Shown here piece by piece: positions 17,018 to 32,177 of a DNA stretch of 32,177 nt. The notes below the pieces were generated by a model, which worked only from the letters and a program-made list of their open reading frames with translations, did no database searches and was not told the origin of the DNA. Location: NCBI GenBank assembly GCA_039030515.1, contig JBCCEA010000041.1, forward strand, positions 1 through 32,177, read 5' to 3'. The DNA is from Myxococcota bacterium (GTDB taxonomy: Bacteria > Myxococcota_A > Polyangia > Polyangiales > Houyiibacteriaceae). Position 1 is the stretch's first letter. Every line of letters starts with the position of its first letter. The position numbers and the translations under genes were made by a program.

Positions 17018-17599
17018 ATGAAATGGCTGAAGATGCTTGAGAGAATTGCTGCGGCGCATCGTCGAACGTTCGCTCGGTTTGCTGCCGTCTGTGGCGCGGT
17101 CATCGTTTCGTGGACGCTGTATTCTGAATTACCAAGAGAAATCGAGATCTTGTACAACTACGGGCTGCATCGCTTTGACGTGACCCGCGTCTCGATCGAC
17201 TACCTTAAACAAGGAGAGTCGGTGCACGGGGTTTCCTTCGAGTACCCCAGGGGAACAGCTCCGGCGAAGGAACGACATCGTCTCACCCTGGCTCGTGGCC
17301 ACTATCGCGTCCTCGCCCGACTCAGCTTGGATGGACGGTCGAAAGAGTTTGCGCGCGCTGTAGAAATCCCCCAGTCGGACGTCTATCAAATCGATCTATT
17401 TGAGATCGCGGTCGCTGCGGCCTCGGGAGAACGAAGCGAGCCACCCTACGCTGAAGAACTCCGCAACGTCTGGACGCATCACAACAGTTTGCACGCACCG
17501 CAATGGCTGCTTGCAAACCTGATTCAGGATGCTTTCGGCCACTCCAAGTTCCGAGCGCGCCGCGCCGATGTCGATAGAAGGCGATTTTACACCGAGTAG
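17018..17599 (+). CDS. Hypothetical membrane-anchored protein
   Basis: Divergent from rel; N-terminal TM (FAAVCGAVIVSWTLY) then a beta-rich domain; 3' end overlaps the convergent wzy stop by 13 nt. Confidence 0.6.
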   Translation: MKWLKMLERIAAAHRRTFARFAAVCGAVIVSWTLYSELPREIEILYNYGLHRFDVTRVSIDYLKQGESVHGVSFEYPRGTAPAKERHRLTLARGHYRVLARLSLDGRSKEFARAVEIPQSDVYQIDLFEIAVAAASGERSEPPYAEELRNVWTHHNSLHAPQWLLANLIQDAFGHSKFRARRADVDRRRFYTE

Positions 17600-18963
17600 C
17601 GTCCGGCGATCTGAGGAGCAGGACCGAGGATTTTGCGGCTTGATGCCTTTTCTGTTCGCTGCTTGGTGCGCAGTATTTGGTTCAACAAAACAAGTGGAGC
17701 CACCGTGAGTACAAACATCGACGGGAGATTCGACGCTATTACTCCGCCACTCGTCATACTCAGAATCATCACTAGATAGAGAAGCATACATCCAGACGAG
17801 TTTCGACGATGTTTTGCCCATTCCCAGGCGATACGGCAAAAGAGTCCGCTGAGTGTCATTCCGAAAAATACGCCTAGTATGCCAAAATTGATCCACCACT
17901 CTCCGATTCCTGTGAATGGCTTGCCGGCGGTGCCCGGTAGATATGTTTCTGAAAACCAGTTTCCAGAGGTGATCGTTTTTGGCTTCTCTTCCCAGAGTGT
18001 TCTCGGGACCAGCCCAATGACCCCACGCACAAAAAAATCCCCATAGAGAAAGTTGTTGTAGTCAAAGTCTTGTTTTACCACCATGAAGTGGTCGAACACA
18101 CTGAGATTTAGGGCCTTTGACATTGTGCGGAAGACTGACGGACTATCCCCGTCTGCCTGTTCCACAGTGTCCCAGTAGTTGACTCGGTTGTTTTCAAAAA
18201 TCGATCTCCGCGCTGTATCGAGCGCACCCATGAGTCCGCCGATCATCACCAAGCCAATTGCGAGATAGACCACTGGTACATTCGGTCTGGACAGCGTGTA
18301 AAGAGCGATAATAAAAATAATAGGATACACGACAGCACTTCGGTCACCCATTAGAGTCGGTGCGAGCAGTGACGCAATCAAGAATACCGCGCTCAAAGCC
18401 CGTCCCCGTCTTCTTTTTATGCTTTCTACCAACATAAAAGCGGCCAGTAGAGACGTAAGATTCGGAATGATCCGAAGAAAAGACAGCCCGTCCCAAAGAC
18501 CATGTCGCGAGGCGTACATAAACTCGGCAACGTTACCTACTCGGATGACTTGATATCCTATCATGCCTAGCGCTACGAGGATGCCTATTGACGTGACGAA
18601 TCGAAGTCGACGCATGCTAATGGCGGTTTGATATCGACCTTTCCCTTTTGAATCTGAACGAATCCATCGTCGCGACCATCCTTTGAAAGATAAATACGCC
18701 AATATAAAAGCGATGTATCCTACTGAAAAAACCATAAGGGTTTCTCGAGCCAGTGCCTTTGGCTCCTCCCGGAAAAGGAACGCAAGAAATGGTGTGTCCA
18801 AGTCCAGAAGAATGAACGCTGGCCTGACTACGAATCGTGGAATGTAGAGATATGAAAATATGGAAAGTGGATCGAACGGGTTTTCTCTGAAAAGCAAAAG
18901 AGCCGTAACCATTGTAGCGGCTAGCAGACCAAGTAGTAAGCTATCAAGAGTCAATAACTGCAT
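17587..18963 (-). CDS. wzy: Oligosaccharide repeat-unit polymerase (Wzy family; ORF extends to 19002)
   Basis: Many TM helices; GDRS motif; periplasmic loop FLYG...LVPRTLWEEKP; GEWWINFGILGV; directly downstream of the flippase. Confidence 0.8.
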   Translation of the reverse strand: MQLLTLDSLLLGLLAATMVTALLLFRENPFDPLSIFSYLYIPRFVVRPAFILLDLDTPFLAFLFREEPKALARETLMVFSVGYIAFILAYLSFKGWSRRWIRSDSKGKGRYQTAISMRRLRFVTSIGILVALGMIGYQVIRVGNVAEFMYASRHGLWDGLSFLRIIPNLTSLLAAFMLVESIKRRRGRALSAVFLIASLLAPTLMGDRSAVVYPIIFIIALYTLSRPNVPVVYLAIGLVMIGGLMGALDTARRSIFENNRVNYWDTVEQADGDSPSVFRTMSKALNLSVFDHFMVVKQDFDYNNFLYGDFFVRGVIGLVPRTLWEEKPKTITSGNWFSETYLPGTAGKPFTGIGEWWINFGILGVFFGMTLSGLFCRIAWEWAKHRRNSSGCMLLYLVMILSMTSGGVIASNLPSMFVLTVAPLVLLNQILRTKQRTEKASSRKILGPAPQIAGRYSV

Positions 18964-19050
18964 ATGATCTTGCTCTTTTCTCGTTCGATGCTCGAAAAGC
19001 ATTCTGAGACACCTGATATTTCAGGTGCGATGGTCATGTGGCTTGTTCGC

Positions 19051-20529
19051 TCACTGTTCGCGATTCCGGTTTCGAGCAAGCATCTTCACGACCAATGTTT
19101 TGATATCCTGGAAACTCTCCGGTTTATTGGTTTTATCTGCAACTTTGATAATGAGTGCCCCTGCAGCTAGCGAAGAGGTTCCTCCAAAGAACAGCTGAAG
19201 TAGCTCGGAGTTACATACGTATGTGGCAGTCCAAGCCGCGGCGCACATGGGTAGGGTTAAGAGCATCGGAGTCCAAACGATCTCAGCAGTTTCATACAGT
19301 GTGATCGATAGCGTGTTCGTTGTGAGCCACAGCCAAGGAAACACCAGGGATCCTTCCGCCAAGACCACTGCCCAAACAGCTCCCTGCACCCCGTGAGATC
19401 GGGTCGTGTGCCAGATGAGAGGAATCAACACGACCAAGTATATCGACGTGAGTAGTACCTCGTGTGCGGGAGTACCTCTTCCGATCAGCAAGGGTCGAAT
19501 CGAGGAAGTGATGGCCTTCAGCGCACCTGCGAGGGTCATCCACATCAGTACCGGTGCGGAAGAGCGCCACTTGTCGCTAAACACGAGGACGATCAATGGC
19601 TCCGCAAGCACCGCCAGGACACCAAGCGCCGGGAACGTCAGGAGCAGAGTGAACTGAAGTGATTTCTTATAACCTCGGGTGATTCGTGCGCTGTCGGTTT
19701 GAACGCTCGAATAAATTGGGAAAAGCGCCTTCCTCGCCACCTGAGTGAGGTCTGAAGCAAACATGTTGCTGAAGCGGGACCCGTTTTGAAACGTTGCTAG
19801 AGACGTTTGTCCGAGATGATTTGAAAGGACGATTCCCGCCAGCTGCTCTCGCGCAACCTGCAGCACGTTCAAAGCGAACAACCATTTGGCAAAGCCAAAG
19901 AGCTCAAAGAGGATCCTCAGATCCCAGGAGAATCGAGGAACATGTCGGTGAAGGACGTAGGACAGAGCTGCACGCGCAAGCAGTCCAGCGAACAAGCCCG
20001 CCACGAATGCCCATGCGCTCTGAAGCAAGGGCGCCAGCGTGCAGACTGTGAGAAGCATCGAGAGTCCGTTGGCCGCTTCGAGGAGAAAGCGCCTCCGAAA
20101 GTCGAGCTGCCTTGAGAGCACCACGAACGCGTTGTTTTCAAGAGCAATCGCCAGTGGGAGAAATGACATCGCCCTCGCTATCGGTAAGGCCTCTTCGGCA
20201 CCGAGAAGCCTTGCGATGGACGGTGCACAGAAAAAAAGCAGTACCGAATACAGGCACCCGCGCACAGCCTTGTCCCAGGTCCATGCCGCGTTGAGCAGCT
20301 CTTGTGAGACTTGTCCCTTTTTCTGGGTGACCGCTGCGCTAAATCCGAAAGCACCCATCGAGACTAATGAATGCAGAACCTTCGCAACAGCGACGAAACC
20401 GAACTCTTCGACGGTGAGGAGATGAGCCAATACCGACATGCTCACTACATGGGCTCCCCGCACTATCCAGCGAGCGAAACCCATCCAGATTCCGGCCTGC
20501 AATCCGATTTGCGTGAGATTTTTTCTCAT
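19051..20529 (-). CDS. wzx: Wzx/RfbX polysaccharide flippase (MOP superfamily; ORF extends to 20577)
   Basis: LAHLLTVEEFG, LSRQLDFRRRF, LFGFAKW, LFPIYSSVQ, LAEPLIVLVFSDKW, GVQGAVWA; many TM helices. Confidence 0.9.
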   Translation of the reverse strand: MRKNLTQIGLQAGIWMGFARWIVRGAHVVSMSVLAHLLTVEEFGFVAVAKVLHSLVSMGAFGFSAAVTQKKGQVSQELLNAAWTWDKAVRGCLYSVLLFFCAPSIARLLGAEEALPIARAMSFLPLAIALENNAFVVLSRQLDFRRRFLLEAANGLSMLLTVCTLAPLLQSAWAFVAGLFAGLLARAALSYVLHRHVPRFSWDLRILFELFGFAKWLFALNVLQVAREQLAGIVLSNHLGQTSLATFQNGSRFSNMFASDLTQVARKALFPIYSSVQTDSARITRGYKKSLQFTLLLTFPALGVLAVLAEPLIVLVFSDKWRSSAPVLMWMTLAGALKAITSSIRPLLIGRGTPAHEVLLTSIYLVVLIPLIWHTTRSHGVQGAVWAVVLAEGSLVFPWLWLTTNTLSITLYETAEIVWTPMLLTLPMCAAAWTATYVCNSELLQLFFGGTSSLAAGALIIKVADKTNKPESFQDIKTLVVKMLARNRNREQ

Positions 20530-21088
20530 CTGCGAACAAGGACCAGCCTTACGGCTCGAGGCCGCTATCGTCAACACCTCGCCGCAGGCTTGGAAGAGTC
20601 TCGGTTCAACCGGGGCCTATCACGAAACGATTGGAGATGCCGACGGATGCCTCTGCTTGATGCGTCGTGCGAGAAAAAACGACCTCTTTCATACGACTCC
20701 ACTGGGATGCCAGGCATTGTGGATTGCAGGTAAGCTCAACGATGGCTTTCGGTCCGAGCTCCTCAGTGAGAAGTTGATTGAGTGGCGTTCAGCGCGCTGG
20801 ACATCCGTCTACCTGAGGGGCAGGATTCGTGACGGGATGGGAACGATCTCGGTCGTGCTCCGCGACGAAGTCCGTCCCAGGGGGAAAAACTTGTGCCTCC
20901 CAACGTGGCTGTGTTGGATGTTTTCTTCGAGTTTTTCGAGACTGCGTGTACTAGACGTCAGGAACCGGCATTTCTCTTTGAGCGCAGCGGGCGAGGTGTC
21001 GTTTCCTATCGTGCAGACCTAAACGCTACGCGTTTCAGCAACCATCGGATCCATAGTTGAAATCTGCGGTGTTAAACGGGGAGACTCG

Positions 21089-23026
21089 ATGATTCGTATC
21101 GCGCTTAGAGCCACGCATGTTCTTCTGGATGTGCTCGTTCTCGCAGCCTCGGTAGTACTCGCGTATCTTCTGAGGTACGATTGGGTGCTGCCGTTCGGAG
21201 ATTTCAAAGTAGGCCTGTTTCTCGGGCCTTATGTTGTTCTTGCACAGTACGTGTTACTTAGCCTTTTCGGTATACCTCAATGTTCCTGGCGTCATTTTGG
21301 TTTGCGTGAAGTGCGACGGGTTGCGGCGGCTCTCGGAGTCGCCATGATGCTCTTTCTCGGCGCGCGAATCGTTTCGGGTTTGCTCCTTCCGAGATGGGAT
21401 TACGCACGCTATGCTCTGATGCCCATCGGAGTCACGATCATCGACTACGTTCTCGCTGTTCTATCGGTGTGTGGTCTTCGCGCGTTGCGACGAAGCATGG
21501 CAGATCGGGCTGCGATCAGGCCGCGGATGGTTCAAACCAAGCCGCGCAAAAAGACCCTGTTGGTCGGAGCGGGTAACGATGGCTGGCTCATCGCTCGCGA
21601 ACTTGAAAATCGGCCTGAATTGGGAATCGATGCGATTGGATTTCTCGATGATGATCCGCACAGGCAAGGTAGACGCGTGCAGGGGATTCCCGTGCTTGGT
21701 AAGGTCGATAATCTCAATACTTACGCATCTCGTTTTGCGGTGGAACAAGCGCTCATCACCCTAGTCGACCCGTCGGGTTTGGTTGTCCGCAAGGTTCGGC
21801 GACTTTGCGCAGAAGCCTCGATCCCTGCGAAGGTAATACCTGGACTTTCCGATATTGTTGAAGGACGAGTGAACCTTACCAGAATGCGGGACGTGGCCAT
21901 CGAGGATCTACTCGGTCGAGAGCCGGTCATCTTAGAGATGGAGGGCATATCCACCACCCTGAAAGATAAAGTCGTGCTGGTTACCGGAGCAGGGGGCAGT
22001 ATCGGCTCCGAGCTGTGCCGACAAATCCTTCGCTTTCATCCGAAACGTCTGATCCTTTTGGAGCGCGCGGAACATGCGCTTTTTGATACCCATCGGGATC
22101 TCATCAAGCTGAGCCCGGAGCATCTCGATCACGTGCTCCCGTGTATTGCAGATGTGTGCGACGAGACTCGCTTACATAGAATCTTTGAGCAGCATCGGCC
22201 AGATATCGTATTTCATGCTGCGGCGCACAAACACGTTCCCATGATGGAATGGAACCCAGGCGAGGCCATCAAGAACAATATTTTCGGAACGCGAACAGTC
22301 GCCGATGCATCCGATCGATTCGGTGTCGCCAGTTTTGTCATGGTTTCTACGGACAAAGCGGTGAATCCCACCTCTTTGATGGGTGCATCAAAGCGTGTAG
22401 CAGAGATTTACGTGCAGGCGTTAGACGATCGCAGTCGCACATCTTTTTCAACGGTTCGATTCGGCAACGTGCTCGGGTCGAACGGCAGCGTCATTCCTAT
22501 CTTCAAAGAGCAGATCGCCTCAGGCGGACCGGTTACGGTGACGCATCCGGATATGAAGCGCTATTTCATGACGATCCCCGAAGCTTGTCAGCTCGTGTTG
22601 CAGGCTGGCGCTATGAGCAAGGGAGGAGAGATTTTCGTCCTCGACATGGGAGAGCCGGTGAAGATTCTCGATCTAGCCACCGACTTAATTTCGCTTTCAG
22701 GATTCCGGCCCGGAGAAGATATCGATATAGAGTTTGTTGGTACCCGTCCAGGAGAGAAGCTCTTCGAAGAGCTTTCTGCGGACGAGGAGCAAGTCGATAA
22801 TACGAGGCATTCCAAAATCCTCGTATGCGCGACTCGCCGCAACGAAATCGACTGGGCGCGTAGAAATATCGAACGACTCGTGCAGATGGCAGATCGAGCT
22901 ACGCCTCACGAGATGCAGCTGGAGCTCACTCGTGTGGTTCCGGAATATCGAAGCCCGGCCGTCGATGATGAGCCCGCTTCTTGGGTTTCGAAGCCTATCA
23001 ACCGGACAGTTTCCGAAGCAGTCTGA
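21089..23026 (+). CDS. Membrane-bound UDP-GlcNAc 4,6-dehydratase (PglF/WbpM/CapD family)
   Basis: N-terminal TM helices; CoA-binding-like LLVGAG; IEDLLGR; TGAGGSIGSELCRQ; HAAAHKHVPMME; STDKAVNPTSLMGASK (MxxxK); RFGNVLGSNGSV. Confidence 0.93.
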   Translation: MIRIALRATHVLLDVLVLAASVVLAYLLRYDWVLPFGDFKVGLFLGPYVVLAQYVLLSLFGIPQCSWRHFGLREVRRVAAALGVAMMLFLGARIVSGLLLPRWDYARYALMPIGVTIIDYVLAVLSVCGLRALRRSMADRAAIRPRMVQTKPRKKTLLVGAGNDGWLIARELENRPELGIDAIGFLDDDPHRQGRRVQGIPVLGKVDNLNTYASRFAVEQALITLVDPSGLVVRKVRRLCAEASIPAKVIPGLSDIVEGRVNLTRMRDVAIEDLLGREPVILEMEGISTTLKDKVVLVTGAGGSIGSELCRQILRFHPKRLILLERAEHALFDTHRDLIKLSPEHLDHVLPCIADVCDETRLHRIFEQHRPDIVFHAAAHKHVPMMEWNPGEAIKNNIFGTRTVADASDRFGVASFVMVSTDKAVNPTSLMGASKRVAEIYVQALDDRSRTSFSTVRFGNVLGSNGSVIPIFKEQIASGGPVTVTHPDMKRYFMTIPEACQLVLQAGAMSKGGEIFVLDMGEPVKILDLATDLISLSGFRPGEDIDIEFVGTRPGEKLFEELSADEEQVDNTRHSKILVCATRRNEIDWARRNIERLVQMADRATPHEMQLELTRVVPEYRSPAVDDEPASWVSKPINRTVSEAV

Positions 23027-23116
23027 AGAACACTCGAACGACAAAGGCACCCTGCCCATTCAGTTCGCACCAAGGACATAGAGGATTTGGGAGCTTGGTC
23101 AGTAAGGAAAGTAGTA

Positions 23117-24130
23117 ATGAGTTCTGTCCGATCTGTTCTGATAACCGGTGGCACTGGATCCTTGGGTCAGGCGCTTGTCCGCAGTCTCGTTAAAGATCAT
23201 CCGGAGGTCGAGCGAATCGTCATCTTCTCTCGGGACGAACTCAAACAATTCGAGATGCAGCAAAAATTCGATGCTGCCTCGTCAAGGTTGCGATTCTTCT
23301 TGGGAGACGTCCGCGATGTAGATCGCCTCAAGCGAGCGTTACGAGATATCGATACGGTGATTCATGCAGCGGCGCTAAAGCAGGTTCCGGCCGCGGAATA
23401 CAATCCTTTCGAATTCATCCGTACGAACGTTATGGGAGCACAGAATTTGATCGATGCGTGTCTCGACAGCGATGTAAAGCGAGTGGTCGCTTTGAGCACG
23501 GATAAGGCAGCGGCACCCATCAATCTTTACGGCGCCACAAAGCTCTGCTCCGACAAGCTGTTCTCTGCTGCGAATCTTTTCAAGGGAGGCAGAGATCTGC
23601 GTTTCTCGGTGGTACGCTACGGCAACGTCATGGCAAGTCGTGGGAGTGTGATTCCCTTGTTCCTACGCAAGCGGAATGAGGGAATTTTACCCATTACCGA
23701 CAGTGAGATGACAAGATTCAACATCACACTGACCAGAGCTCTTGAGATGATCTACCACGCCATCGAGTCTGCTTGGGGCGGAGAGATTTTCGTTCCCAAG
23801 ATACCGAGCTACAGTATCACCGCTCTGGCCGAGGCAGTTGCACCCGAAGCGAAGCAAGTTATCGTAGGCATACGGCCCGGCGAAAAGCTGCACGAAGAAA
23901 TGATCACTGCTGCCGACTCTCCAAATACCGTCGAACTCGAAAGCCATTTCGTCATCATTCCCAGCATGTCTTGGTGGAAGCACGAGGACTATCTACTAGA
24001 GACAAGAGGTGAAAAAGTACCGAAGGGCTTTGCGTATCAAAGCGGTACGAATCCGCACTTCCTCACCGTAGAAGAGATTCGTGAGATGATTCAGCTGCAC
24101 GTGGATCCTAACTTTAGGCCATCTCAGTAA
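23117..24130 (+). CDS. pseB: UDP-N-acetylglucosamine 4,6-dehydratase (inverting)
   Basis: TGGTGSLG, FSRDELKQFEM, HAAALKQVPAAEYNPFE, STDKAAAPINLYGATKLCSDK, RYGNVMASRGSV, GIRPGEKLHEEMI; AAGGA Shine-Dalgarno before ATG 23117. Confidence 0.92.
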   Translation: MSSVRSVLITGGTGSLGQALVRSLVKDHPEVERIVIFSRDELKQFEMQQKFDAASSRLRFFLGDVRDVDRLKRALRDIDTVIHAAALKQVPAAEYNPFEFIRTNVMGAQNLIDACLDSDVKRVVALSTDKAAAPINLYGATKLCSDKLFSAANLFKGGRDLRFSVVRYGNVMASRGSVIPLFLRKRNEGILPITDSEMTRFNITLTRALEMIYHAIESAWGGEIFVPKIPSYSITALAEAVAPEAKQVIVGIRPGEKLHEEMITAADSPNTVELESHFVIIPSMSWWKHEDYLLETRGEKVPKGFAYQSGTNPHFLTVEEIREMIQLHVDPNFRPSQ

Positions 24131-24198
24131 GTGCGAAGTAAGAGATATTCCTCCATGAGCAATCGATGTCCCATGTGGCAGATATCAAAGGGTGCCTA

Positions 24199-25506
24199 AT
24201 GAGTCAGAATGCCATATTGCCGTATGGTCGCCAGTCGATATGCGAAAAGGACATCGACGCAGTTGTAGAGTGTCTTAAGGCAGACTTTCTCACTCAAGGG
24301 CCAAGAGTCCAGTCTTTCGAAAAAGCGCTGTGCGAGTTCACTGGTGCGCGATTTGCTGTAGCGGTATCCAGTGGTACTGCAGCGCTTCACCTGGCTTACG
24401 CGGCGCTTGGACTGGGTACGAACGATATGGCTCTTGTTCCCGCCATCACCTTTGTTGCTACAGCCAATGCAGCAAAGATGCAGGGGATGCGCGTTGCTTT
24501 CGTGGATGTGGAGCGTGATACAGCATTGGCAACCGGAAAGATGTTCAAAGAGGTTGCCGATCGAATAGAGAACAGTGGAAAACTACTCCTTGCACCGGTT
24601 CATATGTGTGGACACCCGGTCGATATGCGTTCGATCCATCGATTAGCAAGCGATAAAAACGCTTTCGTTGTGGAGGATGCATCCCACGCACTAGGTGCGG
24701 ACTATCGCGTGGATGGTGAAACTTATCGGGTAGGACAGTGCGCTCATTCAAATCTTGCCGTGACGAGTTTTCATCCGGTGAAGCACATCACGACAGGCGA
24801 GGGTGGGGCCATACTGACCGCCGACGAGTCGCTCTACGAACGCTTGATGACGCTCCGTTCCCACGGGATCCACAAGGATCCATCACGCTTTTCTTGGTCT
24901 GCAGAGGATCCGATGGCGGGCCCATGGTTCTACGAGATGACGGAGCTCGGTTACAACTATCGCATCACCGACATCCAATGTGCCCTTGGCGCGCAGCAAC
25001 TGACTAGGCTGCCTGAGTTTTTAGAACGCAGAAGGGCGCTCGCTGCGCGTTACGACTCGTTTCTTGCTCCACTCGCCGATTTCGTCGTTCCCCTTAGACG
25101 CAATGAGGACTGTCGACATGCCTATCATCTGTACGTGATTCAGCTTGTTCGGCGTCAAGACGAATCGCTCGAGCAGCTCGCGCTTCGGCGTAAGAGACTG
25201 TACCTTGCGCTTCGGGAGCGAGGAATTCTCACCCAGGTCCACTACATTCCCGTTCCGTGGCAGCCTTATTATCTCTCGCAGCATGGTGCGTATTTCAAAA
25301 CAATTGCTGCTCATATGGAAATCTCTGATTCAAACGAGCATTCCGACGCTGTCGTCGTGAACAAAGAAGCCAGGCAGACCATGTTTGAGTCCTACCCAGG
25401 TGCAGCAGAGTATTACGCTGCAAGTCTCAGCCTTCCGCTCTTTCCTGCTATGTCTGATGGCGATATCACTAAGGTTGTTGAGGGGATTCAAGCCTGGGTA
25501 CGTTGA
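24199..25506 (+). CDS. pseC: UDP-4-amino-4,6-dideoxy-N-acetyl-beta-L-altrosamine transaminase (DegT family; alternative start 24166)
   Basis: LPYGRQSI, FLTQGP, SSGTAALHLA, EDASHALG, SFHPVKHITTGEGG (PLP Lys), LGYNYRITDIQCALG, QVHYIP; follows pseB. Confidence 0.9.
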   Translation: MSQNAILPYGRQSICEKDIDAVVECLKADFLTQGPRVQSFEKALCEFTGARFAVAVSSGTAALHLAYAALGLGTNDMALVPAITFVATANAAKMQGMRVAFVDVERDTALATGKMFKEVADRIENSGKLLLAPVHMCGHPVDMRSIHRLASDKNAFVVEDASHALGADYRVDGETYRVGQCAHSNLAVTSFHPVKHITTGEGGAILTADESLYERLMTLRSHGIHKDPSRFSWSAEDPMAGPWFYEMTELGYNYRITDIQCALGAQQLTRLPEFLERRRALAARYDSFLAPLADFVVPLRRNEDCRHAYHLYVIQLVRRQDESLEQLALRRKRLYLALRERGILTQVHYIPVPWQPYYLSQHGAYFKTIAAHMEISDSNEHSDAVVVNKEARQTMFESYPGAAEYYAASLSLPLFPAMSDGDITKVVEGIQAWVR

Positions 25507-25567
25507 TCTCTAATGCCAACTTGGTACTTGATGCAAATAATCTCTATCTTAAGGCGACAGTAAATCA

Positions 25568-27874
25568 GTGTCATCGAACAAGACTATCAAGCTAGACTTT
25601 GTTTCGGTCGGCCCCATGCGTGCGGGGACTACCTGGCTTCACGAGGCCTTGAGTCATCATCCCGCAGTTTCGCTTCCGGTTGAAAAAGAGACGTTTTTCT
25701 TTGATAGGAACTTCGATCAGCCTCAAGAATGGCACGAGGCACATTTTCGACGACCCCTCAAAGCATGCGTCGGAGAAGTGGGTGCTTCTTACTTCCATGG
25801 TGATGGAGTTCCGGATCGGATCTACAGATACAGCCCTGGGTGCCGTATGATCATCCACCTTCGAGATCCTGTAGACCGAGCCTGGTCCACATTTGATCAT
25901 TTTCTGCGGCGCGGCATGGTACCTCAAGAGCTCCCGCGGGCGATCAAAGTGAAACCGGAAATACTTGAAGCCAGTCGGTATTCAGTATATCTCCCTCGCT
26001 GGACAGAGACTTTTGGTGCAGAGCGCATTCACTTTGTGTCGATGGACGCGATACGTGCACAGCCTGAACGCGTACTCGATGAGCTTTTGCATGTTCTGGG
26101 TCTAGCCAATATCGACGTGTCCTCTATTCCGCGAGGTCCAGTAAATGCCGCGTTTAGGCCACGCTCTCGTATTGTTCAGCGTATACAGCATGAACTATTT
26201 TGCGCGTTGCGAGATCGTCACTATTTTCATGCACTGTCCGCATTGAGACCGATCGCACGCAGGACGCGATCGTTCTGGCAAAAGTCAGCCTCTCCAAACG
26301 TGCCCAGCCAACGAGAGCTCGACTGGCTAAACCGAAATCTGGGTGACGAGCGGATATACTATCAGACGCTTTTATCCTCAGCGATCCAAGCGGAACTCGA
26401 TCATCCTCCAAGGTCTGTCGTAGCAAGCGAGCTCAGCACATCAGAATCTAGAAAACCTCGGTTTTTTTTAAAACCATCTTTCACAAAGGTACGGATATCT
26501 CCGGGATCCTTTGACGAACGAGATGCTTTGTTCAGTGACTCGAATGAGGACGACACAAGCCGCGTCTTGACCTCAACAGATGAAACGCGGACTACGGAAG
26601 TTTGGGTCACAACGGAGCAGCGATACCTTCGGTCGGACGACGGCGTGTTCGTCTCGGGTATCGAAGATGCAGACTTTTTCAGTCGTTATTTGCGCATCTT
26701 TACAAAGGTGAACGTGATAGCGAGAGTGACCCGTGTATCCGAAACTCCATCGGTACCGTATGTACGAGCCGAAGCTGCGCATATCGAGTTCTTTGACCTA
26801 CCGGCATTTCCCGATGTGCACGCTACACGAGGCGAAGTGCCATTTAGATGCGTCGCACTCGCGGATCGGATCCGGGCACTGATGTTTCTTTGGGGTAAGA
26901 AAACACGTTCGGAAGCCCAGGCTCCGGTCGTAATTCTTCGCTCTCCAGGGCTCGTGTGCTTTTGCGTTTGGCAAGGATTGAGGCTGCTCCCTAATTTCGC
27001 AAGACCGATTGTCGGGGCAGAAGTAGTTGCCGACCCAGACCAAGAATACGCCAGAGCAGCCATTGTATCCCGAGGTGCTTCTCTCTTACGCAGGACTGCA
27101 GTCAGGATGCTTGCAAATCAGTGCGAAAACAGCGACGGGGTTGCATATGTCACAGAGCATGCACTCCAGCAACTTTATCCACCGAAGTGCCGTTCCTTCA
27201 GTTACTCCAGCATCGATCTCGGCAGTTCCGCATTTGACCTTTCGACTCCCGTGAACGCGAGACTGAGTGCGCAGGACGATATGCTAAAGAAGGCCACCAT
27301 TGCATTCGTCGGCAATCTAGGCCGGCCACTCAAGGGGCTTGATGTGCTTCTCAACGCGATCGCGGCGATACCGGTGGATCTTCAGCCGAATCTTGCAGTG
27401 GTTGGAGATGGAGCGCTCAGAAAACAATATGAACTTCATGCGGAACAATTGGGCCTGCTCGATCGCGTAAAATTTCATGGACAATTACCTAAAGGAGACG
27501 CGGTGTATGCGGTGCTTGCAGACGCGGACCTTTTCGTGCTCCCAAGTCGGCGAGAGGGGTTGTCAAGGGCGGTGATCGAAGCGATGGCCGTTGGTTTACC
27601 CTGCCTGATGACTGAAGTTTGTGGTGCAGAAGAGTTACTTGCCAAACAAGACAGAGTCCCTATTGACGACGTATCTGCTTTGGCCAGTAAAATCGAGCAA
27701 ATGCTGCGGTCGCGGCAGCGGCGATGCCTTGCATCAGAACGCAATATTCAGCGGTCACGCAGGTATCAGCACGAGCTCATTCAACGGCAACGAGATTCGT
27801 TCTACCTATGGTTGAGGGACATTGCAGAGGTGAGTCGCTCCGGTCCGCCAAGGACGTATTTGAAAAAATACTGA
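25568..27874 (+). CDS. PAPS-dependent sulfotransferase fused to a GT4 glycosyltransferase
   Basis: N-terminal GPMRAGTTWL (5'-PSB loop), KETFFF, LRDPVDRAWS (3'-PB); Ser/Asp/Glu-rich linker; C-terminal FVGNL..KGLDVLL and FVLPSRREGLSRAVIEAM (EX7E). Confidence 0.85.
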   Translation: MSSNKTIKLDFVSVGPMRAGTTWLHEALSHHPAVSLPVEKETFFFDRNFDQPQEWHEAHFRRPLKACVGEVGASYFHGDGVPDRIYRYSPGCRMIIHLRDPVDRAWSTFDHFLRRGMVPQELPRAIKVKPEILEASRYSVYLPRWTETFGAERIHFVSMDAIRAQPERVLDELLHVLGLANIDVSSIPRGPVNAAFRPRSRIVQRIQHELFCALRDRHYFHALSALRPIARRTRSFWQKSASPNVPSQRELDWLNRNLGDERIYYQTLLSSAIQAELDHPPRSVVASELSTSESRKPRFFLKPSFTKVRISPGSFDERDALFSDSNEDDTSRVLTSTDETRTTEVWVTTEQRYLRSDDGVFVSGIEDADFFSRYLRIFTKVNVIARVTRVSETPSVPYVRAEAAHIEFFDLPAFPDVHATRGEVPFRCVALADRIRALMFLWGKKTRSEAQAPVVILRSPGLVCFCVWQGLRLLPNFARPIVGAEVVADPDQEYARAAIVSRGASLLRRTAVRMLANQCENSDGVAYVTEHALQQLYPPKCRSFSYSSIDLGSSAFDLSTPVNARLSAQDDMLKKATIAFVGNLGRPLKGLDVLLNAIAAIPVDLQPNLAVVGDGALRKQYELHAEQLGLLDRVKFHGQLPKGDAVYAVLADADLFVLPSRREGLSRAVIEAMAVGLPCLMTEVCGAEELLAKQDRVPIDDVSALASKIEQMLRSRQRRCLASERNIQRSRRYQHELIQRQRDSFYLWLRDIAEVSRSGPPRTYLKKY

Positions 27875-27902
27875 CGCGATCACGAACTCGCGGAGATCAG
27901 AC

Positions 27903-29087
27903 ATGCGAATATTGACTCTTATACAGGCGTATTTGCCAACAGTCGGCGGAATGATACGTTACAGCGCTGACGTTGTAGAACACCTGCGCACTCGAGGGCA
28001 TCAAGTAGATGTGCTTGCTCCAGCGCCAGGAACGCAAACAAGCCTGAGCCCGAGCAGCCAAGGAACCGTAATCAACGTACCCGCTTGGTTCCAGATCGAC
28101 TCTGCCGTTATCGCGCCGATGTACCCCACAGCATTTTGTGCTTTGGCCAAAGGGTACGACCTACTGCATTTCAACTTTCCTTCACCGATAGCTGAGCTTT
28201 CTCTGCTTGCGTTCTCGTCGCGATTAAAGCAAGTGCGGAAGGTCGTTACGTATCACTCTGACATCGTGCCTGCGAAACGATTCAGTGGTTTGTACAACAA
28301 ATTCATCACCCGTTCTTTCTTAGATTCTATGGACGACATCATCGTGACTTCGTCTCAGCTTTTGAATTCGTCGCCTCATTTGAAGGCTTTGAAAAGCCGA
28401 ACGCAAGTGATCCCTTTGGGTGTTCCCTCTAAGAAATTTGCCCTTCATTCGGTAAAGAAGAACATGAAAAGGCCCTTGCAAGTTCTCTTTGTGGGGCGGC
28501 TTTCACGGTACAAGGGGATCGACTACCTCATCGCCGCAATGCCTAAGCTGAACGCGGAGTTAAGAGTCGTTGGGGCGGGTCCCCTTGAAGCTTCCCTGCG
28601 AAGTCAGATTTCATCGCTTTCACTGCAAGAACGTATCACACTTCTTGGTAATATGTCTGAGTCCAAGTTGATTTCGGAATACCACGCGGCAGATGTGCTC
28701 GTACTGCCATCTACCGATTCGGCGGAAGCGTTCGGCTACGTTTTGATCGAAGCGATGATGGCTCGCTGTGCGGTCGTATCGACAGAACTCGGCACCGGTA
28801 CGTCGTTCGTCAACCAACATGGAGAGACCGGTTTCGTCCTGCCACCAAAGGACTCTGCTGCCATTCATCGGGCGCTGACCAAGCTAGACAGAGATCGCGG
28901 ACTGCTAAAAGACTATCAGGGAAACGCATACAATCGAGCTATAAAGCATTTTGGAATTGAATGTATGTTGGAGATGACGGCCAACCTTTTTGAAGGTGAT
29001 TCCAATAAGTCCTCGGATTTAGGTATATGCAGTACGAAGGCAGTATCATCTGCGGCGCACGCACTAGATCAAGTCGTCACGACGTGA
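27903..29087 (+). CDS. GT4 glycosyltransferase
   Basis: YLPTVGG, VTYHSDIV, FVGRLSRYKG, VLPSTDSAEAFGYVLIEAM, TELGTGTSFVN. Confidence 0.92.
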   Translation: MRILTLIQAYLPTVGGMIRYSADVVEHLRTRGHQVDVLAPAPGTQTSLSPSSQGTVINVPAWFQIDSAVIAPMYPTAFCALAKGYDLLHFNFPSPIAELSLLAFSSRLKQVRKVVTYHSDIVPAKRFSGLYNKFITRSFLDSMDDIIVTSSQLLNSSPHLKALKSRTQVIPLGVPSKKFALHSVKKNMKRPLQVLFVGRLSRYKGIDYLIAAMPKLNAELRVVGAGPLEASLRSQISSLSLQERITLLGNMSESKLISEYHAADVLVLPSTDSAEAFGYVLIEAMMARCAVVSTELGTGTSFVNQHGETGFVLPPKDSAAIHRALTKLDRDRGLLKDYQGNAYNRAIKHFGIECMLEMTANLFEGDSNKSSDLGICSTKAVSSAAHALDQVVTT

Positions 29088-31693
29088 GACCGGAAAAACC
29101 AAGCGATTCAGTCAGCGATTCACCGGAGATGTTTCGTACGTCTGCGCATCGATCGAAACGGCGATTCTCGCGACGGCGAACCGCGCGACTTTTGAGTTCG
29201 CCCCTACGTGCCAAGAGCCACACGTACGCGAGCTCAGCGATCGCCTTTCGGTTTGGGATCGGTGCGATGGGTGCATCGATAGGTCTTGCTCCACTGCTTT
29301 TCGGAGGAACCTTCGGCTGGTCGGTTTCTGTAATTGCAGGGATTTCTTCGATGGCGGCGATGACCGTGCCAGAGGCGTTTTTCTCTAGAGCAGGACGGCA
29401 TTTGCCGCTTTTGGCTGTGGTGTGGGCCGTGGCGGTCCTATTCACATTGATCCAGGCCATACCTTTGCCGAACTCTTTGGTGGCGGCGCTCGCCCCCGAG
29501 AGCCTTGAACGCTGGTTACGTGCAGCGCACCTGCTCGAGCTCGAGGTGGAGTATGCCGCGCTATCGCGCGACCCAGGACAAACATTCGCCTACTTTATTC
29601 AGGCTTTAGGGCTGTTTAGCGTCTACATCTGTGCGTTCATTCTTGGAGCAGGAGGACAGTATCGCTTGGTGCTCACGATGGTCGGTTCCGCGGCTGCTAT
29701 CGTTTCGCTGATAAGCCTCGCGCACATGATTTTTGCCGCCGACGCGGTGTACGGCCTTTACAAACCGGTGCATGCGCGTCCCACCGTGCTCTCGCCACTT
29801 CTCAACAGCAATCATCTTGCGGGGCTGTCCCTTCTAGGAGTCCCGATTCTGGCGACGCTCGGCCTAGAAGGTCGCGATCCATATCGGTACGCATACGGCA
29901 CTGCAGCCATACTCACCGCTTCAACCTTATTACTTACGCTTTCCAGAGGTGGAATCGTCAGCTTCGCAGTCACCTCGGTGATCACTGTGGTTTGGGTCTC
30001 GGTGCTTCGTCGTCGACAGGGAAGGAAGAGTTCGGCAGTTGGGCTGATGTTCGTGCTTCTCGCGGGGGCCGGTCTAGGGATCTGGGCGGCTCGAGGTCTC
30101 AAGGAGGAGTTCGCAGACGCTAGCCAGAAAAAACTGGAGCTTCTCCTTAAATCGTTCGAGTTTATGCAAAGTTGCCCCTGGGTCGGCGTCGGTAGAGGTG
30201 GGTATTCCGCCGCATTTGTCGAATTCTACGGGAACGATCACCGAGCGCACTACGCGGAGAATCTCATCGCGCAGTGGATTTCAGAGTGGGGCGCCATCGT
30301 CGGCCCAGCGGTCTTACTCAGTTGCGCCATTACGTATGTTCTCGCGGCTAGAAACGCTCGGAATGCAGTTCAAGTCGGTGCTCTGACCGGACTGGGAGGC
30401 CTTGTCTTACAGAACATGGTGGATTTCAGTCTTGAGCTCTCCGGTGTGGCGACAGCAGGTGCGGCTACGCTTGGGGTGGTGACGTCTTTTGCGCGAAAAA
30501 AACTACCCCGTCTTCGGATTGCTCCCTTGAGGACGCATCGAGTGGCGCGACTCGTCGGCACTCTGTCTCTCGGTATAATTTTGTTTTTTGGGTGGAGCGT
30601 GCACCGTGACTCGCTGGTCACGGCTCAAGATCGCCTTGAGAAGTCGCTGGCCACCCCGGAGCTCTTTCAAGACGAATTGCGACGTGCGGTGCAGAAGCAT
30701 CCCTCCGAGCCTGTGTTGGCTCTGCTCGCAGGGCACGAGGCCAGGCGCAGGAACGACCCGATGGCGTTGAGGTGGCTGAGCCGCGCCATGGTGCTCGCCC
30801 CAAACTGGTCGAGCCCTCACGAAGAAGCAGCGTATGCCCTTTTTGCCAGAGGCGCGGTGGAACAAGCGCTAATTTCGCTTCGGGAAGCGCTCGAACGGGA
30901 TCCGTCGATCAAGTCAACGTTGCCTTGCGAAGTATTGAACCTTCGATCTCGCGCAGACCCTACCCTCGATCTTCTTCAGGCCGCGCGGGGAAGAGCCGCG
31001 TCGCGGATGCTCGAGCTGGCTGCAGTGTGTCTTGCCATCGATGCCGATGAAACCCGTCGATTGGATCAGAAGATCCTCTCCCTCGACCAGGACCATGCAC
31101 CGGCGAATCTTCGTGCGGCGCGCCGAGCACGTCGAAATGGAGATTCCGTGGAGGCTCTCGACAAGATATTCCGAGCGGTGCGTAGTGATCCGTCCTCACG
31201 TACAGCTCATCTTTTGCGTCTTGAGTTGCTTCTGGCAAGCCAACAATATCTTGCGGCAGCTCAAGCTGTCGAGTACGCGCAAAAACACCTCGACTCGGTT
31301 TGGGAATTAAAGGCGATGCTGGCAGTGGCCAAGGGAGATGTCGAGGCGATGAGGAGCGCAATTTCGGCTATGCGAGGTAGTGCATCAGAGTCTGCGTCTC
31401 GGCTCGCCAGGACCTATAGGTTTTTAGGAAAGATGGAACTCAAAATGGGCTACCAAGCGCGTGCGATGGCTGCCTATACTCGGGCCTACCGCATCGCTCG
31501 GGACTCTCAATCCCTCGACAAGGTTGCGAATCTGGCAGAACAATTGGGGGATCGTGCAACGCTACGCTGGGCACTCAAACGGCTATGTACGCAAGATTCA
31601 ACACCCCCTCGTGCCTGTAGCGGCCGATCGCCCGACGACTCTATCAAGCCGCGGTTCCCTCGAGCTGTGGTGCTATCAGGTTCATCGAACTAG
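29084..31693 (+). CDS. O-antigen ligase (WaaL/Wzy_C)-like membrane protein with C-terminal TPRs (start GTG 29084 or ATG 29129)
   Basis: Multi-TM N-terminal half with NSNHLAG, TLSRGG, PWVGVGRG and AENLIAQWISEWG; helical TPR-like C-terminal half; GTGA overlap with the upstream stop. Confidence 0.8.
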   Translation: MRPEKPSDSVSDSPEMFRTSAHRSKRRFSRRRTARLLSSPLRAKSHTYASSAIAFRFGIGAMGASIGLAPLLFGGTFGWSVSVIAGISSMAAMTVPEAFFSRAGRHLPLLAVVWAVAVLFTLIQAIPLPNSLVAALAPESLERWLRAAHLLELEVEYAALSRDPGQTFAYFIQALGLFSVYICAFILGAGGQYRLVLTMVGSAAAIVSLISLAHMIFAADAVYGLYKPVHARPTVLSPLLNSNHLAGLSLLGVPILATLGLEGRDPYRYAYGTAAILTASTLLLTLSRGGIVSFAVTSVITVVWVSVLRRRQGRKSSAVGLMFVLLAGAGLGIWAARGLKEEFADASQKKLELLLKSFEFMQSCPWVGVGRGGYSAAFVEFYGNDHRAHYAENLIAQWISEWGAIVGPAVLLSCAITYVLAARNARNAVQVGALTGLGGLVLQNMVDFSLELSGVATAGAATLGVVTSFARKKLPRLRIAPLRTHRVARLVGTLSLGIILFFGWSVHRDSLVTAQDRLEKSLATPELFQDELRRAVQKHPSEPVLALLAGHEARRRNDPMALRWLSRAMVLAPNWSSPHEEAAYALFARGAVEQALISLREALERDPSIKSTLPCEVLNLRSRADPTLDLLQAARGRAASRMLELAAVCLAIDADETRRLDQKILSLDQDHAPANLRAARRARRNGDSVEALDKIFRAVRSDPSSRTAHLLRLELLLASQQYLAAAQAVEYAQKHLDSVWELKAMLAVAKGDVEAMRSAISAMRGSASESASRLARTYRFLGKMELKMGYQARAMAAYTRAYRIARDSQSLDKVANLAEQLGDRATLRWALKRLCTQDSTPPRACSGRSPDDSIKPRFPRAVVLSGSSN

Positions 31694-31725
31694 AAGGGTG
31701 TGGCTCCATTGAGAGGATTGAATCG

Positions 31726-32177
31726 ATGAGCAAATCGGATATCGTCGGAGAAAAGCAAGAGGAAGAATCCCTGATCGACGTCGCGTCGTTCCTAAGGCTG
31801 CTCTGGCAGCAGAAATGGGTTCTGCTCGTCTCCACTGTTGCATTCAGCACGGTAGTCATGTTGTGGACTGCACGGCAGCCCAAGGTCTACGAGGCTATCG
31901 GCACACTGCAGTACGATCCGAATCCGCCTCGTCCGCTCCCCGGTAGCGTGGAGGATATCTCACAAGAAGCCCCCAGCTATCTGGGACAACAAGAGTTCTA
32001 CAAAACTCAAAATCAAATTCTATCGAGTCGTGTGCTGATGGAACGAGTGGTGGAACAGCTAGGGCTGCAGGCAAACCCTGATTTCCTATATATCCCTGAG
32101 GACGAGCGCGATGCTTGGGAAGGCGCCTCGATTTCGGAAGCAGCACTCGCTCTTCAGCTACGACTTGGTGTTCGTCA
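31726..32177 (+). CDS. Wzc/GumC polysaccharide co-polymerase (chain-length determinant), 3'-truncated at the window edge
   Basis: Manual translation MSKSDIVGEKQEEESLIDVASFLRLLWQQKWVLL...RQPKVYEAIGTLQYDP...FYKTQNQILSSRVLMERVVEQLGL; GAGAGGA Shine-Dalgarno at 31711-31717; frame open to the end. Confidence 0.88.
   Translation, partial: MSKSDIVGEKQEEESLIDVASFLRLLWQQKWVLLVSTVAFSTVVMLWTARQPKVYEAIGTLQYDPNPPRPLPGSVEDISQEAPSYLGQQEFYKTQNQILSSRVLMERVVEQLGLQANPDFLYIPEDERDAWEGASISEAALALQLRLGVR

Follow-up and report, generated by a model that had tools for sequence, protein, structure and literature searches.

A sulfotransferase-GT4 fusion next to pseB-pseC in a myxobacterial Wzx/Wzy cluster probably serves a sulfated polymer containing pseudaminic acid

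The cluster in which a pseB-pseC pair is followed by a single gene joining a sulfotransferase to a GT4 glycosyltransferase probably encodes a sulfated polymer containing pseudaminic acid (Pse), and probably no new short-cut pathway. We lean, if only slightly, towards an explanation, taken as a whole, in which the window (the entire 32,177-nt stretch analyzed, equal to contig C41) comes from a marine, Sandaracinaceae-like myxobacterium and carries part of its Wzx/Wzy-dependent system for a surface polysaccharide, the genes of which are spread over at least three contigs, and in which a dispersed Pse (probably Pse5Ac7Fo) pathway feeds the sulfated Wzx/Wzy polymer. The original prediction had placed the fusion “instead of” pseH, pseG, pseI and pseF, a claim that gave way once the whole genome (85% complete) was searched: PseI is encoded on C28, a PseG-like gene and three CMP-sugar synthetase-like (cytidylyltransferase) genes on C5 and C51, and a putative Pse transferase adjoins PseI, so that of the set expected to be lacking only PseH is missing. 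Pathway genes that seem to be “missing” when judged on one contig thus need a whole-genome check. The statement that no such pathway was known also proved too strong, as sulfated Wzx/Wzy or capsule clusters that include sulfotransferases are in print, going by the available text of the two papers, for Synechocystis (PMC8205485) and marine Cobetia (PMC11766843).

Family matches in the window (Table 1) bear out the Wzx/Wzy/Wzz setting, as well as the order of pseB, pseC and, after about 60 nt, the fusion, the spacer between the pseC stop at 25506 and the next start (GTG, 25568) being 61 nt. PseB matches its equivalog model (TIGR03589) full-length, at profile positions 3-324 of 324, belongs to that equivalog by score, and is 65% identical both to the PseB of G008 and to that of G020, two sister genomes of the source genome (G000). 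PseC is likewise a member of its equivalog (TIGR03588), by a small margin and with the match in two stretches (446 aa against a 380-position profile). Going by these family assignments, the two enzymes would yield UDP-4-amino-4,6-dideoxy-beta-L-AltNAc. The second dehydratase, immediately 5' of pseB and presumably rightly named after the PglF/WbpM family, reaches only 194.7 bits with the PseB model (cut-off 407.75); together with PseB and PseC, it makes up all the sugar-nucleotide genes of the cluster. Wzx, Wzy, PCP, glycosyltransferases and the sulfotransferase all lie within 17587-32175, a synechan-like composition, while neither an initiating phosphoglycosyltransferase nor an outer-membrane export gene was found in the window. 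As had been stated originally, PseH, PseG, PseI and PseF are not encoded there: these families had no matches among the 24 long window ORFs scanned, and genome-wide HMM searches placed none of them on C41. The Wzy_C gene probably starts 3' of 29027, since its frame overlaps the GT4 gene.

Table 1. Features of the polysaccharide cluster in the window (positions of the window; bit scores with cut-offs where available).
Feature	Position	Strand	Evidence
Wzy-type repeat-unit polymerase	17587..19002	-	TIGR04370 65.2 bits (cut-off 40); Pfam O_anti_polymase and O-ag_pol_Wzy
Wzx (MOP family) flippase	19051..20577	-	Polysacc_synt_3 177.7 bits; MOP flippase NF007773 148 bits, under cut-off
Membrane-anchored PglF/WbpM/CapD-like UDP-GlcNAc 4,6-dehydratase	21089..23026	+	Polysacc_synt_2 407.9 bits; N-terminal CoA_binding_3
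pseB, inverting UDP-GlcNAc 4,6-dehydratase	23087..24130	+	347 aa; TIGR03589 496.9 bits (cut-off 407.75)
pseC, PLP aminotransferase (predicted product UDP-4-amino-4,6-dideoxy-beta-L-AltNAc)	24166..25506	+	446 aa; TIGR03588 433.9 bits (cut-off 423.5); DegT_DnrJ_EryC1 312.8 bits
ST1, sulfotransferase domain of fusion, residues 1-271	25568..26380	+	Pfam Sulfotransfer_3 and Sulfotransfer_1
Linker of fusion, residues 272-341, Ser/Thr/Asp/Glu-rich	26381..26590	+	Spanned by no homolog
GT4 glycosyltransferase domain of fusion, residues 342-768	26591..27874	+	Glycos_transf_1 103.5 bits (gathering score 26.4)
Second GT4 glycosyltransferase	27903..29087	+	Glycos_transf_1 123.1 bits; Glyco_transf_4 60 bits
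Wzy_C (O-antigen ligase/polymerase-like) membrane protein, C-terminal TPR repeats	29027..31693	+	Wzy_C 38.5 bits (cut-off 31.7); TPR_2 match
Wzz/PCP chain-length determinant, N-terminus, truncated at contig end	31726..32175	+	Pfam Wzz 35.6 bits (cut-off 25.5)

The fusion ORF (25568-27874, plus strand) encodes, in one frame of 768 aa, a domain like the heparan 3-O-sulfotransferases and, beyond a linker of 70 aa, an apparently complete GT4, with Pfam matches at residues 10-180 (Sulfotransfer_3/Sulfotransfer_1) and 574-719 (Glycos_transf_1). For the N-terminal, acceptor-side Rossmann domain expected of a retaining GT-B enzyme, there is no Glyco_transf_4 match in it; G020 has a standalone GT4 of 401 aa whose N-terminal half can be aligned to residues 345-573, and it is because this protein aligns over residues 345-749 (34% identity over 411 residues) that the GT4 half is regarded as complete. 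Its translation holds the GT4 E-x7-E stretch (EGLSRAVIE) and the GT4 C-terminal domain. No homolog spans residues 272-341, the ST matches stopping near 271 and the GT4 matches starting at 341-345, and the linker has a weaker coding signature (lower GC at first codon positions); its frame is open for 70 codons, the other two being full of stops. At the DNA level the fusion is genuine: its junction is covered, without a single difference, by Logan contigs of all three runs (from one study, two of them possibly being the source). Both halves share a frame in none of the 60 relatives, where they are separate genes (in G020 on different contigs); the remaining 149 of the best ST1-family representatives reach 598 aa at most, and no homolog of similar length was found among 5.8 billion proteins. 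At 2 of the 80 loci with an ST1 relative, a homolog of the GT4 of the fusion (32-34% identity, 387-422 aa) lies as a separate gene directly upstream of the sulfotransferase, which favors a pairing of ST and GT4 in function.

Among solved structures, the best matches to an ST1 profile (three orthologs) are heparan sulfate 3-OSTs and the NDST N-sulfotransferase domain (1t8t, 1zrh and 1nst, E 1.9e-22 to 5e-15), 3-OST-3 (1t8t) giving 83.5 bits at E 1.9e-22 and the NDST domain (1nst) 59 bits at E 5e-15. The 5'-phosphosulfate loop, the 3'-phosphate motif and the Glu of the E-x-x-x-S-Y-F stretch, which we take to be the catalytic base of 3-OSTs, align in ST1; the corresponding stretches (GPMRAGTTW, RDPVDRAWS and GEVGASYF) are conserved and align with those of 1t8t, and E70, R99 and P101 are invariant and S107 nearly invariant among 46 homologs, all presumably with the roles known from the 3-OST literature. 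Unlike the heparan enzymes, to which it is similar at low identity and over only ~190 residues, ST1 has an Arg in place of the loop Lys of the animal enzymes and is bacterial and cytoplasmic, lacking a Golgi stem, and its fusion partner is a glycosyltransferase, whereas that of NDST is a deacetylase. ST1 thus appears to keep the PAPS-binding and catalytic motifs of PAPS-dependent carbohydrate sulfotransferases. The PAPS genes that the original prediction had suggested looking for were found in the genome, namely CysC (278.8 bits) and CysD (502 bits), behind the latter of which comes a CysN/C-like frame of 695 aa that contains APS-kinase-like stretches, and from these genes a PAPS supply is predicted to be present.

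Much of the remaining Pse pathway could be located outside the window. PseI (C28:35061-36041, 470.1 bits against a cut-off of 340.25) lies in a same-strand run of sulfotransferase ST2, an N-formyltransferase (Formyl_trans_N and N_formyltrans_C domains), PseI and a 459-aa glycosyltransferase, separated by 14, 14 and 43 nt, with a small polyprenyl-phosphate sugar-phosphate transferase divergent from the run. The formyltransferase adjoining PseI is a PseJ-like sugar N-formyltransferase (PseJ being cited for the Pse5Ac7Fo pathway in the available text of PMC11040635), and it may take the place of PseH, for which there were no matches at E <= 0.001. The 459-aa protein matches NF046086 (the BFO_1060 family) and TIGR04396 at 59.9 and 71.7 bits, far below their cut-offs of 200 and 125; it is akin to the Tannerella forsythia transferases of Pse/Leg derivatives (Tanf_01245 and BFO_1060, the latter one of the nonulosonic-acid derivative transferases described in the available part of PMC5420450), from which it differs in being a putative transferase only, encoded outside the window. 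The PseG-like gene on C5 scores 127.5-128.1 bits against a cut-off of 153.55 (an Atlas look-up naming PseG with a score of 0.98 serves as a lead only). The best PseF matches, at 153.9 and 122.7 bits, are both under the cut-off of 205.7, and a third candidate, a CTP_transf_3 gene, lies downstream of the PseG-like gene, second in order from it; CMP-sugar synthetases are present, none of which seems assignable to Pse. We infer a full Pse pathway from a set in which, as in the canonical Campylobacter/Helicobacter cluster (pseB, C, H, G, I, F), PseB, PseC and PseI are over equivalog cut-offs, and in which, unlike in that cluster, the PseG and PseF candidates are under theirs, PseH was not found in an 85%-complete genome, the genes lie scattered over at least three contigs, and sulfotransferase genes are interleaved with them.

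PseB is borne by 5 of the 61 genomes of the family searched, and in three of these five (G000, G008 and G020, which are kin and not independent events) a sulfotransferase directly follows pseC, an adjacency that exceeds chance. The neighborhood put forward for a conservation check was recovered in the sister genomes as pseB-pseC-sulfotransferase, but with a different sulfotransferase family in each and the fusion nowhere else: in G008 the slot is taken by ST1, whose first codon and the end of pseC share 4 nt (GTGA), and in G020 by ST2', with a 4-nt overlap as well (ATGA). Behind the ST1 of G020 comes an ortholog, at 45% identity, of the protein taken to be the Pse transferase; the G008 ortholog of that protein has a cytidylyltransferase as its divergent neighbor. 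All three genomes keep PseI, PseG or a PseG-like match and the putative nonulosonic-acid transferase, and all have pseBC apart from the other pse genes; as each has one PseB over the cut-off and one PseC, the single pseBC pair must supply the PseI and PseG matches. The more distant PseB-bearing kin, G004 and G013, retain ordinary contiguous pse clusters with no sulfotransferase there. PseB and PseC occur together at only 1 of the 80 ST1-family loci (a duplicate of the G008 locus) and any nonulosonic-acid-type match at 2, and at 1 of 4 ST2-family loci NeuB, NeuC and a CMP synthetase are close by. The linkage of sulfotransferases to Pse genes is the new part, and the repeated connection of two of their families with Pse genes, in three genomes, is a pointer to a sulfated glycan that contains Pse.

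On the explanation favored here, the PseC product would most likely not be transferred directly but would feed the dispersed pathway: N-acylation by the PseJ-like formyltransferase, UDP removal by the PseG-like enzyme, PEP condensation by PseI, CMP activation by one of the three cytidylyltransferases and transfer by the BFO_1060-like protein. The fusion would work at the cytoplasmic membrane face, its GT4 half attaching an NDP-sugar to the lipid-linked repeat unit and its other half sulfating the growing glycan with PAPS from CysD, the CysN/C-like protein and CysC, most likely at a hydroxyl on, or adjacent to, the residue with which the fused GT4 deals. Wzx would then flip the unit, Wzy polymerize it and the Wzz/PCP protein set the chain length, giving a sulfated polymer with Pse, probably Pse5Ac7Fo. 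Against this weigh the putative nature of the acceptors of both halves, the PseG-like and PseF-like genes under their cut-offs, the failure to find PseH, the uniqueness of the fusion, which could reflect a recent stop-codon loss devoid of functional meaning, and the lack in the window of an initiating phosphoglycosyltransferase and an outer-membrane export gene. The 4-nt overlaps in G008 and G020, a layout typical of consecutive pathway enzymes, also weigh against it, as they would suit a sulfotransferase whose substrate is the PseC product no less than one that modifies the finished glycan.

It is this layout that leads to the rival reading that we would call possible yet rather unlikely, namely, that the sulfotransferases were recruited into the Pse branch itself, ST1/ST2 either N-sulfating the 4-amine of the PseC product (to 7-N-sulfo-pseudaminic acid) or O-sulfating Pse once transferred to the glycan; if true, the product would be the first sulfated nonulosonic acid from a bacterium, with the fusion marking its incorporation into a Wzx/Wzy polymer. 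Every located ST1/ST2 ortholog in the three genomes is directly beside a Pse gene (in G000, both the pseC-ST1 pair and the ST2-formyltransferase-PseI-transferase run), two unrelated families occupy the position behind pseC, an argument for the linkage being under selection, the distant kin with ordinary clusters have no sulfotransferase in them, PseH was not found in the 85%-complete genome, and the NDST domain to which ST1 is clearly related sulfates the amine of glucosamine. ST1 is, however, nearer to the O-sulfating 3-OSTs, the amine could be capped by the formyltransferase of G000 or by the GNAT beside PseG in G020, sulfotransferases are numerous (6 in G000, about 8-10 in G008 and G020), the counts from kin are not independent, and the link vanishes outside the lineage.

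Improbable, in our estimate, is the direct transfer of the original prediction, in which the GT4 half would use the PseC product or its sulfated form as a UDP-sugar, placing a 4-amino- or 4-sulfamido-4,6-dideoxy-L-AltNAc residue in the polymer with no Pse in the cluster. GT4 enzymes do use NDP-sugars, the sugar-nucleotide genes of the cluster go no further than PseC, and pseBC stands apart in the three genomes; yet PseI, PseG (or its like) and the putative transferase would be left substrate-less in all three if the single pseBC pair did not serve them, the GT4 ortholog of G020 sits between a peptidase and a PEP-mutase-like gene, an unrelated neighborhood by which this GT4 is judged not tied to pseBC, and we know of no polysaccharide with such a residue. 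We give equally little credence to the fusion being a functionless accident, i.e., neighbors joined by a recent stop-codon loss or a deletion, with one half inactive or the protein unstable. Its uniqueness, the unmatched linker with its weak coding signature and the separate halves in relatives would fit; the catalytic motifs kept in both halves, the frame identical in the assemblies of three runs, the linker free of stops and the adjacency of same-family GT4 and ST genes at two other loci speak against it.

To our knowledge, few bacteria other than cyanobacteria make sulfated polysaccharides, and hardly any of the sulfotransferases concerned has an acceptor assigned to it. Where such an enzyme is covalently joined to a single glycosyltransferase, the search for its acceptor narrows to one step in the assembly of the repeat unit, which is directly testable with recombinant protein. 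A sulfated Pse glycan could represent a new class of marine surface polymers of strongly anionic character, and also an enzyme source for chemo-enzymatic sulfation. The nearest known system is the xss cluster for synechan, the Wzx/Wzy-dependent sulfated exopolysaccharide of Synechocystis sp. PCC 6803, which comprises, in the available text of PMC8205485, Wzx, Wzy, PCP, eight glycosyltransferases and two sulfotransferases; the present genes are like it in clustering Wzx, Wzy, PCP and several glycosyltransferases with PAPS-type sulfotransferases of PF00685/PF13469, and unlike it in having the sulfotransferase fused to GT4 directly after pseB-pseC, a myxobacterial host, no XssQRS-type regulatory genes seen, and a polymer whose sulfation is predicted. 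On the synechan side, 7 of the 80 loci, cyanobacterial by their record titles, hold ST1 relatives (29-36% identity).

The surface-polysaccharide cluster, as delineated by Pfam/NCBIfam profile matches, spans the window from 17.6 kb to the contig end, this contig (C41) being the entire window and one of the 75 making up a genome that is 85% complete (see the table for coordinates). A second UDP-GlcNAc 4,6-dehydratase gene lies 60 nt upstream of pseB and reaches no more than 195 bits against the PseB model, which is why the cluster may also make a D-series 6-deoxy-HexNAc (e.g., a QuiNAc-, FucNAc- or bacillosamine-type sugar). Farther upstream, ahead of the genes for RelA/SpoT, a Ser/Thr kinase and a TPR protein, are a family-less 430-aa ORF and an HTTM-domain protein (30.5 bits; vitamin K-dependent carboxylase-like fold), neither of them related to the pse–sulfotransferase finding.

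Coordinates of the features discussed (window positions unless a contig, C, or fetched locus, L, is named)
Feature	Position	Strand	Details
430-aa ORF	8309-9601	+	
HTTM-domain protein	10111-11133	+	
Wzy polymerase	17587-19002	minus	
Wzx flippase	19051-20577	minus	
PglF/CapD-like 4,6-dehydratase, membrane-anchored	21089-23026	+	Polysacc_synt_2 408 bits, N-terminal CoA_binding_3
PseB	23087-24130		TIGR03589 496.9 bits vs cut-off 407.75
PseC	24166-25506		TIGR03588 433.9 bits vs cut-off 423.5
768-aa fusion frame	25568-27874		61-nt spacer after PseC
Fusion, sulfotransferase domain ST1	residues 1-271		Pfam Sulfotransfer_3 + Sulfotransfer_1
Fusion, linker	residues 272-341		no matches
Fusion, complete GT4	residues 342-768		
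Second GT4	27903-29087		
Wzy_C-TPR protein	29027-31693		
Wzz/PCP gene, 5' part only			truncated by contig end
PseI-containing run	C28:33.6-39.0 kb (L006 8619-14030)		
380-aa protein	C5:47193-48332 (L010 9194-10336)		
Cytidylyltransferase and Maf-like genes	C5:130-135 kb (L011 8368-13061)		
Second nonulosonic-acid system	C51 (L012 5969-10585)		
GT4 homolog and ST1-family gene, MAGs	L056 5683-7775; L097 5791-7792		
Archaeal-MAG locus with ST2-family gene	L148 2484-9813		

The original prediction of pseB and pseC followed by a sulfotransferase–GT4 fusion holds as an observation on the DNA, since the fusion is a single open frame, the remaining two frames being closed throughout the linker, and its junction is reproduced with 0 differences by the Logan contigs of three runs, all belonging to a single marine-metagenome study (two of these runs perhaps being the source sample). 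A standalone 401-aa GT4 of the sister genome G020 matches the fusion along 411 residues (34% identity), its residue 4 pairing with fusion residue 345. As far as the protein sequences searched go, the fusion is a singleton: no homolog of similar length was found among 5.8 billion proteins (of 8000 scored, the three at E <= 0.001 were the fusion, a sulfotransferase of 594 aa and a glycosyltransferase protein of 1082 aa), in the 60 related genomes the two halves never share a frame, and there is no second such fusion among the best 150 representatives of the ST1 family, which are 200-362 aa long barring the window protein and one of 598 aa. At two MAG loci, L056 and L097, an ST1-family gene is immediately preceded by the gene of a GT4-domain homolog (32-34% identity), an unfused version of the two halves in reversed gene order.

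ST1 belongs to a large family (39,443 representatives at E <= 0.001, of which 739 reach E <= 1e-30). When a profile of ST1 and two orthologs was compared with solved structures, it matched heparan sulfate 3-O-sulfotransferase 1t8t at E 1.9e-22 and the NDST N-sulfotransferase domain 1nst at E 5e-15. The alignment retains GPMRAGTTW, which is the phosphosulfate loop, together with the motif RDPV-x-RA-x-S and the Glu within GE-x-GASYF. E70, R99 and P101 are invariant across 46 ST1 homologs, and the motif positions presumably have the catalytic roles known for the 3-OSTs.

That pseH, pseG, pseI and pseF are replaced or missing, as had been supposed from the window, was not confirmed when the whole genome was searched with HMMs for PseH/G/I/F: PseI, a PseG-like protein, cytidylyltransferases and a putative Pse transferase are encoded on other contigs, so that the set is largely present elsewhere, with a formyltransferase that may stand in for PseH, which gave 0 matches in this 85%-complete genome. 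PseI (470 bits vs a cut-off of 340) is found on contig C28 within a same-strand run with gaps of 14-43 nt, where a second sulfotransferase (ST2; 403 aa, Sulfotransfer_3) is followed by a sugar N-formyltransferase (Formyl_trans_N and N_formyltrans_C), PseI and a 459-aa protein matching TIGR04396 and a BFO_1060-family glycosyltransferase model, each below cut-off. BFO_1060 is described as a transferase of a nonulosonic-acid derivative in Tannerella forsythia (PMC5420450), and PseJ is the formyltransferase cited for the Pse5Ac7Fo pathway (PMC11040635). Divergent from the run is a gene for a small polyprenyl-phosphate sugar-phosphate transferase, and the operon looks like the complement of the window cluster, which is without an initiating transferase.

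The PseG-like gene, on contig C5, reaches 127.5 bits vs a cut-off of 153.55 (PseG is also its name in an Atlas look-up, no more than a lead) and has a CTP_transf_3 gene two genes downstream; the 380-aa protein encoded between the PseG-like gene and the cytidylyltransferase has no Pfam/NCBIfam match and three paralogs in the same genome at 28-33% identity (two on C5, one on C11). Two more PseF-like cytidylyltransferases, on C51 and C5, score 153.9 and 122.7 bits vs a cut-off of 205.7, each with a Maf-like (MptE-like domain) gene nearby, and the one on C51 lies within a NeuB–NeuC cluster. This C51 cluster is a second nonulosonic-acid system, in which a NeuB-like synthase (375 bits, slightly short of cut-off) and NeuC (381 bits) go with the cytidylyltransferase and a Maf-like protein. 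At 130-135 kb of C5, genes for a B12-binding radical SAM protein and a Maf-like protein accompany another cytidylyltransferase. The role known for Maf proteins, transfer of nonulosonic acids to flagellin, is odd for a myxobacterium.

PseB exceeds its cut-off in five of the 61 searched genomes of the family (the present one counted), with G004 (pseB, pseC, cytidylyltransferase, pseG) and G013 (pseC, pseB, pseG, pseI, GNAT) having ordinary pse clusters without a sulfotransferase. The split layout of the present genome recurs in the sister genomes G008 and G020 (one genus). In G008, pseB, pseC and a standalone ST1 (about 270 aa, 44% identity to the window domain) are followed by a Wzy_C gene, PseI–PseG are on a separate contig, and the C28 transferase has an ortholog encoded divergently next to a C5-type cytidylyltransferase. 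In G020, pseB–pseC are followed by a 386-aa sulfotransferase and then Wzy; this sulfotransferase is a distant homolog of ST2 (23% identity full-length, E 2e-12) and not of ST1. The ST1 of G020 is encoded on a different contig, where the gene immediately after it is the ortholog (45% identity) of the C28 transferase; in addition, PseG passes its cut-off in G020 and is closely followed by a GNAT-like stretch. Taking the gene after the G020 ST1 for a Wzy_C protein was rejected, there being no likeness, once it proved to be that ortholog, and so was treating ST1 and ST2 as one family, as their sulfotransferase families differ and the alignment is meaningless. The pseBC–sulfotransferase neighbourhood is therefore kept in both sister genomes, albeit with the other sulfotransferase family in G020. 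All five ST1/ST2 orthologs located in the three genomes adjoin a Pse gene, a count that should not be over-read, as these genomes are kin and each of them has between 6 and about 10 genes for sulfotransferases.

Beyond the lineage, the link between sulfotransferases and Pse fades. The closest ST1 loci are, by record title, from Myxococcales and Sandaracinaceae MAGs, and among 80 ST1-relative loci (29-44% identity, from a search built on a 10-sequence alignment), only one, a duplicate of the G008 locus, has true PseB and PseC, and two have a GT4-domain homolog as a separate gene directly upstream of the sulfotransferase; tblastn with proteins of the present genome, which gives lower bounds, found polysaccharide-type matches at at least 26/80 and nonulosonic-acid-type ones at at least 2/80. 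Of four ST2-relative loci, two have an ST1-type gene nearby and one, from an archaeal MAG (L148), has NeuB, NeuC and CMP synthetase at 4-6 kb, being the sole other ST2-family gene seen near nonulosonic-acid genes.

The data are explained most simply by a Pse pathway that is complete but dispersed, starting with the single pseBC pair of the window and probably yielding Pse5Ac7Fo. The resulting polymer would be Wzx/Wzy-dependent, with a lipid-linked repeat unit sulfated in the cytoplasm from PAPS, and the fusion would couple a single glycosyl transfer with a single sulfation. The analysis shows the family memberships, the conserved motifs, the other genes elsewhere in the genome, the conserved linkage and a fusion that is real in the DNA, whereas all the substrates, the step order and the presence of sulfate are what we infer. 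The main rival, in which the sulfotransferases have the PseC amine or else Pse as their substrate, draws on the 4-nt overlaps of the sulfotransferase start with the pseC stop (GTGA, with a GTG start, in G008, and ATGA in G020) and on the slot after pseC being taken by two sulfotransferase families, but N-acylating enzymes are present and no sulfotransferase–Pse link of such kind is seen outside the lineage. Direct transfer of the PseC product by the GT4, as originally proposed, is the least likely reading, because PseI, PseG or a PseG-like protein and the putative nonulosonic-acid transferase are retained in all three genomes and would then have no other source of substrate.

N-formylated Pse is already in print, and clusters combining Wzx/Wzy machinery with sulfotransferases (synechan, PMC8205485), or capsule export with sulfotransferases and PAPS genes (the Cobetia capsule, PMC11766843), have been described. 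The literature search yielded no paper in which "pseB", "pseC" and "sulfotransferase" occur together, no sulfotransferase fused to a glycosyltransferase and, on bacterial sulfated nonulosonic acids or myxobacterial sulfated polysaccharides, nothing relevant beyond sludge-EPS chemistry (PMC10483923). Relative to the literature searched, the fusion, the wiring of sulfotransferases to pse genes and myxobacterial sulfated polysaccharides thus appear new; the interest is moderate at present, and would be high if sulfate sits on the nonulosonic acid.

The PAPS-synthesis genes that sulfation calls for are present, as a standalone CysC and a CysD gene, behind which comes a 695-aa frame that in places resembles APS kinase; no Sat-type ATP sulfurylase (PF01747) was found in the genome, which has the CysD route instead. 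An earlier tblastn-based count of only two sulfotransferases was dropped, as the Pfam search gives six, with about 8-10 in each sister genome, and this myxobacterial family is sulfotransferase-rich. Beyond ST1 and ST2, the genome has four Sulfotransfer_3 genes (two places on C7, one each on C43 and C9) scoring 58.6-110.5 bits.
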